Shown here piece after piece: positions 24,575 through 40,241 of a stretch of DNA of 51,931 nucleotides. The stretch is from the NCBI GenBank assembly GCA_011390645.1, contig JAABRY010000010.1, positions 1 through 51,931 on the forward strand, read 5' to 3'. The position numbers and the translations under genes were made by a program. Position 1 is the first letter of the stretch. Each line of letters starts with the position of its first letter. The notes under the pieces are model-generated. The model was not told the origin of the DNA and did no database searches. It worked only from the letters and a program-made list of their open reading frames with translations. The DNA comes from Gemmatimonadota bacterium (GTDB taxonomy: Bacteria > Gemmatimonadota > Gemmatimonadetes > Gemmatimonadales > GWC2-71-9).

Positions 24575-26347
24575 GTGACCGCCACACCAAGCCCATCCCG
24601 AGAGGCGCCATGGTCCACCGCGTGGACCATTGGTCGGGGTGTGGCCATCTGGGTCGTGCCGGTGCTCCTCGCTGGCCTGGTGGTGGCCCCGGAGCACGCG
24701 TTGCGCGTGCTCTGGTTTGTCGTGGTGCCACTCCTGCCCGCCACCTTCTTCCTGAACACCACCGTGTGGCGGAGCATCTGTCCGCTGGCGACGCTCAACG
24801 CCTGGGGGAATCGACTCGGCGAGCCTCGTGCGATCACGCCCCGTGCCACGGCGGTACTGAGCGTGGGGGGCCTGTTCCTCTTTCATCTCCTCGTGCCGGC
24901 GCGCCGATTCGTCTTCAACACGGATGGACTGGCGCTGGCGATCACGATCCTGCTCGTGGGCGGCATGGCGATCGCGTTGGGCAGCCGCTTCGCGGTCCGC
25001 TCCGGCTTCTGCAACGCGCTCTGTCCCATCCTGCCGGTCGAACAACTCTATGGCCAGGCACCACTGTTGCCGATGGTCCGGGGCCGCTGCGCGACCTGTG
25101 TCGTGTGTACCTCGCGTGGATGCCTCGACCTCGCCGGCGGGCGCGCGCTGGTCCAGGTGATCGGCCGCCGTCGCCGCAGTGCCGCCTGGCTCTGGACACC
25201 AAGCGGTCTCTTCATCGCGGGGTTGCCAGGCTTCGTCATCGGCTTCAGCGTGCTGTCGGACGGCCCGCTCACCAGCGCGCCCGTCGCGTATGCCACCACC
25301 CTGGGATGGTCCCTGGCGAGCCTGATCGTGGTGGCCGCGCTCGCCGTCGGTGCCCACCTCGACACGGCGCGATGCTTTCCGCTGCTCGCGGGCACATCGG
25401 GACTGCTCTACTACTGGTTCGCCGGACCGGCCATCGCGGAGGCGTTCGCGGCCGGCCCCGCGCTCGCCACCGTCGTCCGTGTGGCCGGGATGGGATTGGC
25501 GAGCCTCTGGCTCTGGCGCGCCTGGCCGACCTCCCCCCCCCGCAGCCTGGCCCATGCCGCACTTGTCGTCGCGCTCCTGACTGGTGCAAGCCCCCTCGCA
25601 GGCCAGATGGTCATCGATCTCCCACACCGCGCACCCGATGCCCCAGGTGGCGATGCGCTGGCAATGCAGGTGCAGGAGCTGTCGCGCGCCGCGCGCGAGG
25701 GGCGGATCGTCGCGGAGGTGCTTGCGGGAAACGTCCCGACCTGGTGGCGACACCTCGTACCGGTCACGATGGTGCGTCGGGTGGGGACGCGCGACATCAC
25801 GGTGCAGTTCGAGGCGACGCCGGATTATCTCGCGGTCGGCAGTGACGATGACTGGTTCCTGATGCCGCTCGCCCCGGAAGCGGCGAGAGGCCTTGGTGCG
25901 TTGACCGACACGCGGCTCCCCACCCCCCCGATGGTTGATGCCATCTGGCAGGCCGCGGCCGTGCGACTCGGCCCTGATTCCATCGCGCCATCGGCCGCGA
26001 TGGTGACGGTCCCCGTCTTTGTGGACCACATGCGGATGATTCGCGCCCGCCGGGGGGCCGTCGGGGCGGTGCCTGGGGACCTGGTGGCAGGACACAAGAA
26101 GGACGTCGTGCAGACGCCCCACCTCGATTTGCTCCCGGGTCGGGTCGCGATCTACGGTTGGCACCGGCCCGATGGTCGCCCGATCCAGCCACTCTACACC
26201 GGGCACGCGAGCAGTCACGTCGATTACAGCCACGGCATCCGACTGGTGTCACGTCGTGTCCTGATCGATGGCATCCCGCACGATCTCGACGAGCTGGTGC
26301 GCGACCCCGTGCTGGCCGGGGCCGTGCACGATCCGATCGCGAAGTGA
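24575..26347 (+). CDS. Fusion: Cys-rich 4Fe-4S-binding-like membrane domain plus uncharacterised soluble domain
   Basis: ICP, FCNALCP and CATCVVC...C in a multi-TM N-terminal half; C-terminal half has DYLAVG, GHKKDVV, AIYGWH, HVDYSHG. Confidence 0.7.
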   Translation: MTATPSPSREAPWSTAWTIGRGVAIWVVPVLLAGLVVAPEHALRVLWFVVVPLLPATFFLNTTVWRSICPLATLNAWGNRLGEPRAITPRATAVLSVGGLFLFHLLVPARRFVFNTDGLALAITILLVGGMAIALGSRFAVRSGFCNALCPILPVEQLYGQAPLLPMVRGRCATCVVCTSRGCLDLAGGRALVQVIGRRRRSAAWLWTPSGLFIAGLPGFVIGFSVLSDGPLTSAPVAYATTLGWSLASLIVVAALAVGAHLDTARCFPLLAGTSGLLYYWFAGPAIAEAFAAGPALATVVRVAGMGLASLWLWRAWPTSPPRSLAHAALVVALLTGASPLAGQMVIDLPHRAPDAPGGDALAMQVQELSRAAREGRIVAEVLAGNVPTWWRHLVPVTMVRRVGTRDITVQFEATPDYLAVGSDDDWFLMPLAPEAARGLGALTDTRLPTPPMVDAIWQAAAVRLGPDSIAPSAAMVTVPVFVDHMRMIRARRGAVGAVPGDLVAGHKKDVVQTPHLDLLPGRVAIYGWHRPDGRPIQPLYTGHASSHVDYSHGIRLVSRRVLIDGIPHDLDELVRDPVLAGAVHDPIAK

Positions 26348-32440: not shown

Positions 32441-34816
32441 TCAGAGCGTCGCCGTGATCCGAGCGAACACGATGCGCCCCGGCTCGGGAATCCTCCCCCC
32501 CCCAAAGGCATTGCGCGCCGTCAAGTGCATGACATAGGCCGCGTCAAGGACGTTGCGCACACCGCCCTGCAAGAGTACGGACCGGGCGCTACCGCTCCAC
32601 AACCGGTATCCCCCGACCAGATCCACGGTCGTCCACCCCGGAGTGGCCAACTCGCCGCGGGTCGTGGCCACGCGCTCCTGACGCGCGGCCACATGCAACG
32701 CCGGTTCGAGGAACCAATCTGTACCAACCGGTGCGATCCGCAGGCGGAGATCGGCCCGCACCGGGGTGACACCCAGCGCCGGTTCGTCGAGCGTGCGATC
32801 CTGCCCGTAGAGGTAGGACACCGAGCCCGACGCGGTGATGGCCTCACTCACCGGCGACGCGAGGGTGAGATCCCCCCCATGGTAGACCGCTTCGCCGTTG
32901 ATGAACCGGAAGACGGGCGGCGGACTGCCCGGCATCGCGCGCGGCAGGTCGGTGGCTGCAAGGGTGATGTAGTCATCCATCCGGCGAACAAATGCGCTCG
33001 CCCGCACCTGGAGTCGCGGGTACCGTGCCTCGACCCAAAGATCGGCCTGCGTACTCCGCTCAGGCCGAAGCGCGGGATCGCCGAGGAATTCCGCGTTGGT
33101 CTGCGCGCGCTTGGCGGCAGCCCGATCGCTGAAGCGCTCGTTCGCCTCCGCCGTCCGCACCACGGAACCGAGGCCGCCCGTGACGGTCCACCGCGGGGCC
33201 ACCGGCACGCGCAGGGTGACAGCACCGCTCCAATTGGTCTCGCTGGACGTGAAGTCGTTGCCATGTTGCGCGATGAAGAAGGGGGACGCGGTGTCGGCGT
33301 CCGCCCGCACGACATCCATGCGTGCCGCCATCGCCAACTCGGCGCGCCCCACGGCACGCGTGGCGCGTACGAAGACACCGGCATCACGGATCCAGGCCCC
33401 GCCCCAGATCAGGTCACGCCGCACCGGTGCTCCCGTGTCGCGGCGATCCACTTCACGCGACGCGTCGTGATCGGCGTGGTAGATGTCGCCACCCACCTCG
33501 ACCTCCCAGTTGGCTGGGCCAGCCATGCGTGCTGCAAAGCGGCCGCCCAAGACCTGCACCCCAGCACCCGTGCGCACATCGGTCGCGAATGGCGGCATCC
33601 GGCCAGGATCGGGCAATGCCGTGGGCTTCTCGTCGTTGTCCATCAGGTGATCCACGTCGTAGACGTAGGCCATGATATCCAGGTCGCGGAGCCGGGAGCT
33701 GCCCAACCCTGCCGGGCGGCGCAGCGACCACTCTGCCTGGAGGTGATAGGTGTTGAAGAAATCGGCGTCGAGTGGACGCCCGGGGTAGTCAATGTCCCGC
33801 TGCGCCTGATACGAGCCGAGGAAGCCCAGGGTGCCATGGTCACCGGTGCGAATCCCGACGCGACCGCGCCCTTCTGCACTGGTGAAGTCACCGGGGACAA
33901 TCGTGCCATCACCGGCGGTGTAGTCACTTCCTTGCCGATAGGCGCCGCCCAGAGCGTAGCGCACAGCACCGGTGGTCCCTACCGCACCGTCGAGGCCAAG
34001 CGCGGCCTCATAGGCCCCGATGTTGTCGTCATACCCGGTGGTGAGGCGACCACGAAGGGGAGCACTTCCGCTGGAGGGGAGTGGGAGCGTCGTCATCCGG
34101 ATCGCGCTGAGATTGCCAGCGCCCCACGTGAGGGCGTACGGCCCTGCGAGCACCTGAATCTCTTGTACGTGGGCCGGGTCCACATGGGACATCGGCGTGT
34201 CCATCCCTGCCGGACCACCGGGGAAGGTGCGCGCAGCATCCACGTAGACACCGATCTGGGTGTCGCGGAGGCCGCGCACCACCGGATCTGCGGCGGTCCC
34301 GCCACGACGCATCACGTCGGTGCCCGGCAACTCGCGCAAGATGTCGGCAGGATCATGCGGAGTGCGCGAGGCGATCTGCTCGCGATCCACGCGCAACTCG
34401 CGCACGTCATCACGGCGCGCCACGACACTGATCGTTCCGAGATCTTGCACCGAGGGGACGAGGATGACGGACACCTCGGTCGTATCGCCTGCGACGACGG
34501 TGGCCGACACCATGCCAGCGTGATAGCCGGTCGCCACGACTTCCAGCGTCACGCTCCCGGCCGGCAGCGGGCCGAGCAGGGCACGACCGGTCGCCCTGGT
34601 GAACACGACCGACCCGACGGCAACCCCGCTGACCAGCCGGGCGCGGACGCGCGCCCCGATGACCGGTGCGAGCGCGGGCTCGGAGACTGTCACCGCGAGA
34701 TGGCCGGTCGGCTGCGCCGACTGGCCTGCCAGGGGAAACGCAAACAACAACAGCAGGGCAATGCCGCGGAGCACCCGCAATGGTGCTCGGCGACTGCCGG
34801 TGATGCGATGAGTCAT
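32441..34816 (-). CDS. TonB-dependent receptor, OprC-like (putative copper/metal)
   Basis: Signal peptide, N-terminal carboxypeptidase-regulatory-like domain, plug VVRGL...IQVLAGPY, GGPAGMDTPMSH, DHLMDN, C-terminal PGR. Confidence 0.85.
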   Translation of the reverse strand: MTHRITGSRRAPLRVLRGIALLLLFAFPLAGQSAQPTGHLAVTVSEPALAPVIGARVRARLVSGVAVGSVVFTRATGRALLGPLPAGSVTLEVVATGYHAGMVSATVVAGDTTEVSVILVPSVQDLGTISVVARRDDVRELRVDREQIASRTPHDPADILRELPGTDVMRRGGTAADPVVRGLRDTQIGVYVDAARTFPGGPAGMDTPMSHVDPAHVQEIQVLAGPYALTWGAGNLSAIRMTTLPLPSSGSAPLRGRLTTGYDDNIGAYEAALGLDGAVGTTGAVRYALGGAYRQGSDYTAGDGTIVPGDFTSAEGRGRVGIRTGDHGTLGFLGSYQAQRDIDYPGRPLDADFFNTYHLQAEWSLRRPAGLGSSRLRDLDIMAYVYDVDHLMDNDEKPTALPDPGRMPPFATDVRTGAGVQVLGGRFAARMAGPANWEVEVGGDIYHADHDASREVDRRDTGAPVRRDLIWGGAWIRDAGVFVRATRAVGRAELAMAARMDVVRADADTASPFFIAQHGNDFTSSETNWSGAVTLRVPVAPRWTVTGGLGSVVRTAEANERFSDRAAAKRAQTNAEFLGDPALRPERSTQADLWVEARYPRLQVRASAFVRRMDDYITLAATDLPRAMPGSPPPVFRFINGEAVYHGGDLTLASPVSEAITASGSVSYLYGQDRTLDEPALGVTPVRADLRLRIAPVGTDWFLEPALHVAARQERVATTRGELATPGWTTVDLVGGYRLWSGSARSVLLQGGVRNVLDAAYVMHLTARNAFGGGRIPEPGRIVFARITATL

Positions 34817-34850
34817 GCCACACTCCAGACCAACGTGATCAGTCAATGAA

Positions 34851-34895
34851 CTGCCCATTCGAGCGGCATCGGTGATGCGCGGCAGAATGGGGCAG
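34851..34895 (-). promoter_or_regulatory. Stem-loop between the leader ORF and the receptor (possible attenuator)
   Basis: CTGCCCATTC/GAATGGGGCAG outer stem and GCATC/GATGC inner stem. Confidence 0.45.
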
Positions 34896-34903
34896 CAGGG
34901 GCG

Positions 34904-35299
34904 CTAGAGGAGAGCGCCTGCCGGCGGACCGATCGCGAAGGGGAGGAGGTGGGCGGTGCGGGCGAGGACCGTGTCCGACGTCGCAAGGAAGCGGGCCGGC
35001 TCACTCGCCGCGATGGTAGCGGTGATGGACGCGCAATCGCACCCTGTCCACGGCATGACGGCGACACAGCAGGCGCTGTCGAGGCAATTGCACGGTGGGG
35101 GGGTGGAGTGATCCGATTCGGGGAGCTCGCCGCCGGTGTGCCCCCGGTGTCCAGCGTGGGGGTCAGGCGCCTCACTGGACGATGCGATCTCGGGCATGGC
35201 GGTGGTGCAGCCATGGGAGACCATCGGCAGGATACCGGCCACGGCCAGCAGACACGCGAGGCTCGCAGCGCGGAGGCGACGTGACAGGTCGAACCGCAT
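34904..35299 (-). CDS. DUF2946-like Cys/His-rich leader protein (CruR/CutF-like)
   Basis: Signal-like N-terminus, HAGHRGH, CNCLDSACC, C-terminal PFAIGPP; directly upstream of the TBDR. Confidence 0.65.
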   Translation of the reverse strand: MRFDLSRRLRAASLACLLAVAGILPMVSHGCTTAMPEIASSSEAPDPHAGHRGHTGGELPESDHSTPPPCNCLDSACCVAVMPWTGCDCASITATIAASEPARFLATSDTVLARTAHLLPFAIGPPAGALL

Positions 35300-35348
35300 C
35301 AGCCAATGATAAGCGGATACCGATAGATCGACGAGGAGGCCCCTTCCG

Positions 35349-39809: not shown

Positions 39810-40241
39810 ATGACACCTCCTTCCCTACTCGCCCGTCGCGATGTGCTCCATCTGTTGGCATTGGGCGCACTGGGTGGCCTGGTTCCGATGGCGCTGCCAG
39901 CCACGGCCCATCCTGAGCGGCGTCGCGGACCACACCCAACGCCGCGACGTGACTACACCGCTGACAAGGTGCTCCCTGCCGACCAACTCGGCGGCGACAA
40001 GGAGCTGATCACCTTGTTCGATGGCATCCGCAAGATCCCGCAGGTGGTTGATGGCGTACGCTGCAGTTGCGGGTGTGCCGAGCTGCCGGGATTCTATTCG
40101 TTGCTCAGTTGCTTCGAGGGGAAGGACGCCATGGCGAAATGGTGTGCGATTTGCGCAGGCACTGGGGCTTTGGTGATCCGGCTGCACGGTCGGGGTCGCA
40201 CCCTTGAACAGATTCGGGAGGCTGTCGATGCGCGCTATTGA
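39810..40241 (+). CDS. PCYCGC-like Cys-rich protein with Tat-like signal
   Basis: RRDVL; CSCGC...SLLSCF...CAIC. Confidence 0.7.
   Translation: MTPPSLLARRDVLHLLALGALGGLVPMALPATAHPERRRGPHPTPRRDYTADKVLPADQLGGDKELITLFDGIRKIPQVVDGVRCSCGCAELPGFYSLLSCFEGKDAMAKWCAICAGTGALVIRLHGRGRTLEQIREAVDARY

Follow-up and report, generated by a model that had tools for sequence, protein, structure and literature searches.

A conserved leader family with an arginine-free di-proline tail, candidate for metal-responsive ribosome pausing, upstream of TonB-dependent receptor genes in Gemmatimonadota

The leader and the receptor at the locus

The DNA analyzed here (the window) is a stretch of 51,931 nucleotides from a Gemmatimonadota bacterium (contig JAABRY010000010.1). 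On its minus strand, a small open reading frame (ORF), here called the leader, precedes the gene for a TonB-dependent receptor. The two are separated by 87 nt (34903-34817), and the receptor begins with an ATG at 34816. The following features were located:

35306..35311 (-): -10-like hexamer TATCAT, 6 nt upstream of the leader ATG, from a box count across the family
34904..35299 (-): leader ORF, 131 aa, CutF/CruR-like, from ORF, family profile and synteny
35216..35272 (-): hydrophobic N-terminal helix, residues about 10-28, a putative signal peptide or anchor
35207..35209 (-): Cys31, invariant in the alignment; C-P-x-H in the family consensus
35138..35158 (-): His-rich HAGHRGH (residues 48-54) within a linker of variable length
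35066..35092 (-): Cys cluster C70-x-C72-x4-C77-C78, putative metal site; family form CxC-x3/4-C(C)
34922..34951 (-): conserved tail H117-P126 (HLLPFAIGPP), putative arrest motif; C70 to P125 is 55 residues
34855..35010 (-): C>G bubble, with C up to 0.53 and G 0.21 in 78 nt; possible Rho-loading site
34945..34952 (-): His-Leu-Leu codons with an anti-Shine-Dalgarno stretch; predicted pairing partner 34826-34818
34927..34934 (-): Ala-Ile-Gly-Pro codons, predicted helix with intergenic 34844-34837
34851..34895 (-): intergenic hairpin, -20.5 kcal/mol by folding, then TTCATTG; does not include the ribosome-binding site
34823..34826 (-): receptor Shine-Dalgarno site GGAG
32441..34816 (-): TonB-dependent receptor, 791 aa, OprC-like, with Gly in the place of OprC Cys143 (GxxxM + HxM)

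The sequence confirms what the preliminary description had listed for the leader, namely a frame of 131 aa with an export-like N-terminus, HAGHRGH, CNC-x4-CC and its terminal tail, 87 nt from the receptor. The N-terminus consists of a basic stretch followed by a hydrophobic one (best 11-residue hydropathy 2.85, predicted helix 5-28), and 146 of 150 family representatives have a hydrophobic N-terminal part. The Cys cluster reads C70-N-C72-x4-C77-C78, and the C-terminal tail is HLLPFAIGPPAGALL, with the PP five residues from the C-terminus. A second CxC (87-89) and Cys16 are not conserved among relatives. Cys31 is not favored as a lipoprotein Cys: it lies in S-H-G-C, which we take not to be a lipobox, and the family has C-P-x-H at this place. 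The AlphaFold model of the leader is mostly coil (pTM 0.31), with disorder predicted outside one N-terminal helix. A tail motif of this kind ends only 2 of the 27,712 stop-to-stop frames of at least 60 aa in the genome, indicating that the leader ORF is more than chance; the other such frame has no downstream gene of note. The leader is a real gene and a member of a conserved family.

No Shine-Dalgarno site precedes the leader ATG. Across the family, a TAnnnT box was found 5-8 nt before the N-terminal start in 51 of 108 members, compared with 44 of 6,545 ATG/GTG codons in gene bodies (0.7%, a control of GC-rich coding sequence with a correspondingly low baseline) and with none of 89 downstream-gene starts. 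The promoter scan did not call TATCAT, which has a weak -35. It is likely that the transcript is leaderless and starts at the leader ATG, with the leader first, and it would hold the leader and the receptor only. A conserved third gene after the receptor was not found among the loci, and in the window the receptor is followed by a convergent gene.

The best family match of the receptor was TIGR01778 (193.8 bits, below the cut-off of 472.45), and its best relative of solved structure was OprC (E about 1e-32). Equivalents of OprC Met147, His323 and Met325 are present, and Gly replaces Cys143 in all 12 receptors of the subfamily whose motif was read. As far as the accessible text of the OprC study goes, the C143A variant lost Cu(II) binding and still bound Ag(I), a Cu(I) mimic (PMC8610252). 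Uptake of Cu(I) by the window receptor is therefore plausible, and the subfamily may import Cu(I) only or another metal; the lack of the Cys that OprC requires for Cu(II) counts against copper as the established metal. This cysteine-less subfamily is patchy, occurring in 12 of 401 genomes of the phylum and in 2 of 52 in the genus. In a metagenome scan for receptor relatives, none of 66 candidates was confirmed; among plasmids, the search with DNA yielded no match and the one with protein yielded distant receptors only.

Two other genes of the window were noted. At 39810-40241 (+), 4.5 kb from the leader, lies a gene for a small exported protein of the PCYCGC/CYCXC family (PF13798; NF041379 under its cut-off), possibly another metal-binding protein. 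At 24575-26347 (+), a 590-aa ORF has an N-terminal membrane part with CPL, CNALCP and CxxCxxCxxxxC and a different C-terminal domain, and gave no Pfam match at E<=1.

The leader family and its downstream genes

Receptor homologues were gathered without using the leader, from four loci of a genome collection and from 11 of 400 other genomes of the phylum. A small ORF of the same layout and on the same strand was found upstream in 12 of 13 other Gemmatimonadota receptor loci; this count leaves out L003, which has no upstream DNA, and L004, which is from Balneolaceae and has a different leader. The exception, L015, has an insertion-sequence-like stretch upstream and no leader within 1.5 kb; we presume this character from the integrase frame at L015:1-1400 (+). 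The same genome carries a family leader elsewhere (G221:C11). In L004, the related receptor lies behind a different Cys/His leader that ends in LLIPPRV (1820-2185, +). The closest named receptor relatives are from Gemmatimonadales and Gemmatimonas, and one leader relative is from Gemmatimonadaceae.

An alignment of 14 leader proteins has six invariant columns (C31, H48, C77, P120, P125 and P126); mean column identity among leaders is 24%. A profile of the leader matched 138 of 401 genomes of the phylum, 11 of which had supplied seeds, and 2,019 clusters at 50% identity. When the leader was used in a single-protein search, only its own cluster and one relative at 77% were found, and a word-indexed profile search gave seven; the family surfaces only under exhaustive profile searching. 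In an atlas search, one look-alike cluster was commonest in Pseudomonadota and another had 12% DUF2946. The family was absent from 301 genomes of the phylum of the Balneolaceae receptor homologue, a search that had no positive control inside that phylum. No account of the family was found in the literature covered, outside of which lay subscription journals and some supplements. Three supplement files of the CutF-like survey contain no Gemmatimonadota term (PMC9973294); the published CutF-like list and the bioRxiv supplements may include members from this phylum.

The profile search listed 150 matches, with 23 more beyond these, and 80 further regions were fetched. In the loci examined, 114 distinct ORFs matched; two had no motif, were seemingly off-target and were dropped, leaving 112 members. 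Their consensus tail is [HYFR]-x-L-P-[FY]-[APS]-[NTIQHV]-[GA]-P-P, and 148 of the 150 family representatives bear the motif (IGPP in 10, Arg in one). The preliminary description had put forward IGPP as the motif. This is rejected, as IGPP ends 14 of the 112 tails, compared with 27 for NGPP, 22 for TAPP and one with Arg; the position ahead of GPP or APP varies, and the residues that do not vary are P-x4-PP. It had also proposed collecting ORFs upstream of receptor homologues and checking xGPP and its spacing. Here the spacing proved to be conserved, but xGPP is not fixed, GPP and APP being about equally frequent. All four Pro codons are used at the invariant prolines, indicating that the constraint acts on the peptide, and all Gly and Ala codons occur at the -2 position.

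A cluster of the form CxC-x2-6-C is present in 107 of the 112 members, and in 105 of these the distance from the first Cys to the first Pro of PP is 52-58 residues. Since profile searches favor the spacing of their seeds, the 13 seeds found by synteny are the fairer test, and the distance was 52-55 in 12 of them. The His-rich linker upstream of the cluster ranges from 14 to 103 residues. About 50 residues between a sensor and a pause would place the cysteines just outside the exit tunnel. The same argument has been made for CruR (PMC9426467).

A loss of RAPP throughout this host was considered and rejected. In the same genome, a leader on the minus strand of another contig (C155, with its stop some 31,251 bases short of the contig end) has HHHH and one Cys, ends in ...GPRAPPARA and is followed by a TonB-like gene; Arg and Arg-free leader types thus coexist. 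We conjecture that the fixed L-P-[FY] may stand in for the role that Arg has elsewhere.

To assign the downstream genes, their proteins were clustered and representatives of each cluster were scanned, which left a few uncalled. TonB-receptor clusters account for 77 of the 112 (13 of the 77 being seeds), an MbnP cluster for seven, PCuAC for three, and CopC, AhpC/TSA, a porin and a hydroxylase for one each. MbnP-like, PCuAC, CopC and AhpC/TSA genes are reported to follow cruR homologues as well (PMC9426467). Another 13 leaders precede an outer-membrane-type, His/Met-rich protein without a Pfam match. This exported protein of about 350 aa (L048:1631-2710, -, with 12 relatives in L037, L039, L051, L053, L054, L057, L061, L062, L073, L104, L121 and L125) has P-x-G-H-x-P-I-G-V-M-G near its start and is possibly an unannotated outer-membrane metal transporter. 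In L067 and in L100, two family leaders lie close together; the pair in L100 consists of one ahead of CopC and another ahead of a TonB receptor.

RNA structure at the leader-receptor junction

The preliminary description had placed a stem-loop followed by TTCATTG between the two genes, and folding reproduces it at 34851-34895. As an intrinsic terminator the hairpin was rejected, with no consensus call and only four T in its 7-base tail, and it is the tail codons instead that are predicted to mask the receptor ribosome-binding site. Both predicted helices of the tail codons enclose the hairpin, and the 161-nt junction folds better than 200 of 200 shuffles (z = -3.12). When the hairpin was forced open in the model, the receptor Shine-Dalgarno site stayed paired with leader codons.

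The predicted cost of opening the receptor ribosome-binding site on the free mRNA of the window was 19.3 kcal/mol. The genome median was 11.0 (80 of 134 comparable genes), and 2 of the 80 were as high as the window. A ribosome modeled at P125 cut the cost to 11.2-14.2, depending on the footprint, while a ribosome at the stop codon (about 17.5) or a forced-open hairpin (about 17) hardly altered it. With a narrow footprint (-12 to -15 nt), the anti-Shine-Dalgarno stretch still paired in the model (p 0.93-0.99). The site is thus predicted to be masked on the free mRNA and to be partly opened by a ribosome at P125.

Family-wide, the tail has a codon bias that creates an anti-Shine-Dalgarno sequence. 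Of 112 members, 52 use CCT for the first Pro of PP, whereas in the leader bodies this codon accounts for 106 of 1,355 Pro codons (8%). The sequence CCTCC is present in 73 of 112 tails; 200 synonymous recodings gave it in 33.6 tails on average and in no more than 47. Pairing was assessed in the 60 of 112 members that have a confident downstream start. There, leader codons were paired with the Shine-Dalgarno site at p>0.5 in 43 of 60 native and in 23 of 60 recoded sequences; masking is not universal, 17 of the 60 lying below 0.5. The mean opening cost in 58 members was 13.1 with the native tail, 10.9 when recoded, 11.4 with the tail of another member and 9.1 when stalled, and the native tail masked its own site more than a swapped tail in 41 of the 58. 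As the downstream starts were picked by heuristics that favor good Shine-Dalgarno sites and related genomes are not independent, the p-values for masking are overstated. In two of the closest loci, L001 and L008, modeled stalling did not open the site.

Covariation was observed in a single related contig. Close to the base of the hairpin, a U-A pair is replaced there by C-G, and in the Ala-Ile-Gly-Pro helix a G.U pair by G-C. The tail also carries two synonymous changes, and one of these disrupts a pair predicted for a small stem over the stop codon.

Proposed control and comparison with known systems

Sequence and comparison provide the ORF, its family, the Cys-to-PP spacing, the position before probable metal-uptake genes and the anti-Shine-Dalgarno codon bias. 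Our preferred reading, to which we give somewhat better than even chances, is that of a CutF/CruR-type cis-acting leader that pauses the ribosome and unmasks the receptor start, most likely under metal (probably copper) scarcity. By analogy with CruR and CutF, the ribosome would pause at the arginine-free P-F-A-I-G-P-P tail. The paused ribosome would disrupt the pairing of the tail codons with the receptor ribosome-binding site, and the receptor would be made. Metal bound by the nascent Cys/His site, about 50 residues upstream, would release the pause through folding or pulling, so that the importer would be "off" when metal is plentiful and made when it is short.

Several points count against an Arg-free arrest. 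The sequence x-G-P-P is of the type on which EF-P acts, and two genes of this genome score above the TIGR00038 cut-off as efp-like (G000:C219:10855-11406 and G000:C17:18225-18773). According to the accessible text of the arrest study, Arg is irreplaceable in ApcA, ApdA and ApdP, and arrest is lost in CruR R139A (PMC12992588). The CutF tail alone was no strong staller (PMC9973294), and CutF stalling was copper-induced and EF-P-sensitive (bioRxiv 10.1101/2025.02.05.636593). We advance as possible, with the balance tilting against it, a bolder claim: that L-P-[FY]-[AP]-x-[GA]-P-P forms a distinct, Arg-independent arrest class found phylum-wide beside RAPP leaders, whose codons both stall the ribosome and hide the next start, on a leaderless transcript and ahead of a cysteine-less OprC-type receptor for Cu(I) or a soft metal.

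With the same leader and the same pausing, the main output could be transcriptional: the paused ribosome would cover a C-rich Rho site in the tail, release by metal would lead to Rho termination ahead of the receptor, and the hairpin would serve as a polymerase pause site. The C>G bubble at about 35010-34855, the long intergenic gaps (median 107 nt, 88 members) and the third positions of the motif codons, which are G-poor (0.21 versus 0.37 when recoded) and T-rich, are consistent with this, and C/U-rich, G-poor tail codons suit a Rho site equally well. The genome contains a rho-like gene (E 5e-130, slightly under the family cut-off), and the 3' end of cruR is described as carrying the same signature, a C>G bubble along with rare CCT codons (PMC9426467). 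However, composition alone leaves unexplained why native tails mask their own site more than swapped ones, and Rho sites are unstructured, whereas the C-rich stretch of the window is predicted to be paired. We think it rather unlikely that transcription is the main output; given the bubble and the rho-like gene, Rho termination is a live rival or partner of translational unmasking, and both outputs can coexist.

A modest chance, too, goes to a leader that senses something other than copper, be it another soft metal or the thiol redox state of the periplasm; in mechanism, this overlaps with the preferred reading. The replacement of Cys143 by Gly in 12 of 12 receptors and the score under the copper-receptor cut-off point in this direction. 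The CutF-like survey reports that copper specificity does not hold for all of these proteins (PMC9973294), and disulfides have been proposed for the CutF cysteines (bioRxiv 10.1101/2025.02.05.636593). On the other side stand the retained equivalents of Met147, His323 and Met325, the Ag(I) binding of OprC C143A (PMC8610252), and the MbnP, PCuAC and CopC genes that follow other family members.

The polarity could also be that of CutF, with metal binding in the periplasm inducing a pause that EF-P otherwise relieves, and metal thus switching the downstream gene on. The tail is nearer to the Arg-less EGPPP of CutF, whose stalling is the copper-induced and EF-P-sensitive one, than to RAPP; nearly all family members have a putative export signal, and CopC, PCuAC and the His/Met-rich outer-membrane protein could bind metal instead of importing it. 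We consider this polarity improbable, as copper represses OprC and BfrG/CrtA (PMC9426467, PMC12914433). Moreover, the downstream genes are mostly those of TonB importers, including the relative of OprC. Least probable, and very unlikely in our view, is an ordinary exported metal-binding protein or receptor chaperone whose tail is kept for binding or degradation and whose RNA pairing is incidental: Cys/His-rich exported proteins often accompany metal transporters, and the pausing of this leader is putative, but the predicted disorder (pTM 0.31), the mean column identity of 24% with a fixed Cys-to-PP distance, the same leader ahead of many unrelated proteins and a synonymous codon bias concentrated on the tail all speak against it.

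The concept of a metal-sensing leader peptide is itself already known. Two examples, CruR and CutF, have been studied and follow opposite logic, and arrest chemistry is structurally explained for Arg-containing motifs only. The present family offers thousands of natural Arg-free motif variants with a fixed distance between sensor and pause. It therefore allows one to ask whether stalling at a di-proline tail can be both regulated and resistant to EF-P, and what takes the place of Arg. In roughly one third of the sampled Gemmatimonadota genomes, the family gives a label to unannotated genes and marks the genes behind them as probable metal-uptake genes.

We regard the family as a lineage-specific variant of the CutF/CruR-like leaders. 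The preliminary description had suggested a divergent version without Arg, with its own Cys pattern and in another lineage, and the family, its spacing and weak DUF2946 matches bear this out: with the DUF2946 model PF11162 (cut-off 23.7 bits), the window protein gave no match, 16 of 30 relatives matched weakly and one reached 24.0 bits. The CopL family model matched 2 of 14 leader members. The comparisons that follow rest on the accessible parts of the cited papers.

CruR (Bp2923, DUF2946/PF11162) of Bordetella pertussis is the leader of cruR-bfrG(crtA)-bp2921 (PMC9426467), and its arrest has been demonstrated (PMC12992588). Both CruR and the present leader are small and poorly structured, with an export signal (a putative one here), and are located before a TonB receptor as first gene (probably so here), with a long intergenic gap and a C>G bubble at the 3' end. 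CruR requires a fixed spacing between Cys and RAPP (PMC9426467), and its last Cys lies 48 residues before the first Pro, compared with 47-48 in the leader. Where CruR has CxxC, the present family has CxC-x3/4-C(C) along with C-P-x-H upstream and a His-rich linker, and the place of RAPP is taken by P-[FY]-[AP]-x-[GA]-PP. No PepSY gene follows here, and the accessible text on cruR describes no masking of the next ribosome-binding site through tail codons.

CutF of Rhodobacter capsulatus and the "CutF-like" class (PMC9973294; bioRxiv 10.1101/2025.02.05.636593) share with the leader an export-type N-terminus, a Cys/His motif and an Arg-less x-G-P-P tail, and in both cases control is proposed to act via structure over the next ribosome-binding site. 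The leader falls within the CutF-like limits on length (150 aa), on the distance of PP from the C-terminus (15 residues) and on the distance to a same-strand neighbor (1,000 nt). CutF comes from a different phylum, carries CxxxC and PPP, and lies ahead of the gene for a copper-detoxifying oxidase, which copper induces. For CutF it is the intergenic stem-loop that covers the ribosome-binding site; in the present case this part is predicted for leader codons and not for the hairpin. The published set demanded only PP near the C-terminus (PMC9973294), and CutF itself ends in PEPEGPPPRL, with no Arg before the prolines (bioRxiv 10.1101/2025.02.05.636593). The preliminary description had characterized the known leaders as RAPP/RGPP-like, which fits CruR but not CutF, so that they are not uniform. 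HAPP, QAPP, HGPP and TGPP are among the RAPP-like search motifs already described (PMC10987492). Together with the EGPPP of CutF, these mean that an Arg-free tail is not unprecedented.

Like the leader, the RAPP-like peptides ApdA, ApdP, SecM and the RQH family (PMC10951233, PMC10987492, PMC12992588) have a C-terminal x-[AG]-P-P after an export signal (putative in the leader) and a small residue (Gly, Ala or Pro) before the prolines, and HAPP, QAPP, HGPP and TGPP occur in the leader family as well. A parallel to the masking predicted here is secM-secA, in which the next Shine-Dalgarno site lies under a structure that stalling opens. ApcA, ApdA and ApdP have an essential Arg three residues before the A-site Pro (PMC12992588), which the leader lacks; unlike the RAPP-like peptides, the leader family has a fixed upstream L-P-[FY] and mostly Asn, Thr or Ile before [GA]PP. 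RAPP-like peptides monitor secretion, whereas the proposed input of the leader is metal.

Finally, the receptor retains the equivalents of Met147, His323 and Met325 of OprC from Pseudomonas aeruginosa (TIGR01778; PMC8610252), and differs from it by Gly for Cys143, an extra N-terminal carboxypeptidase-regulatory-like domain and a score far below the equivalog cut-off. As in the window, oprC has a leader gene upstream, in its case a cruR homologue (PMC9426467).
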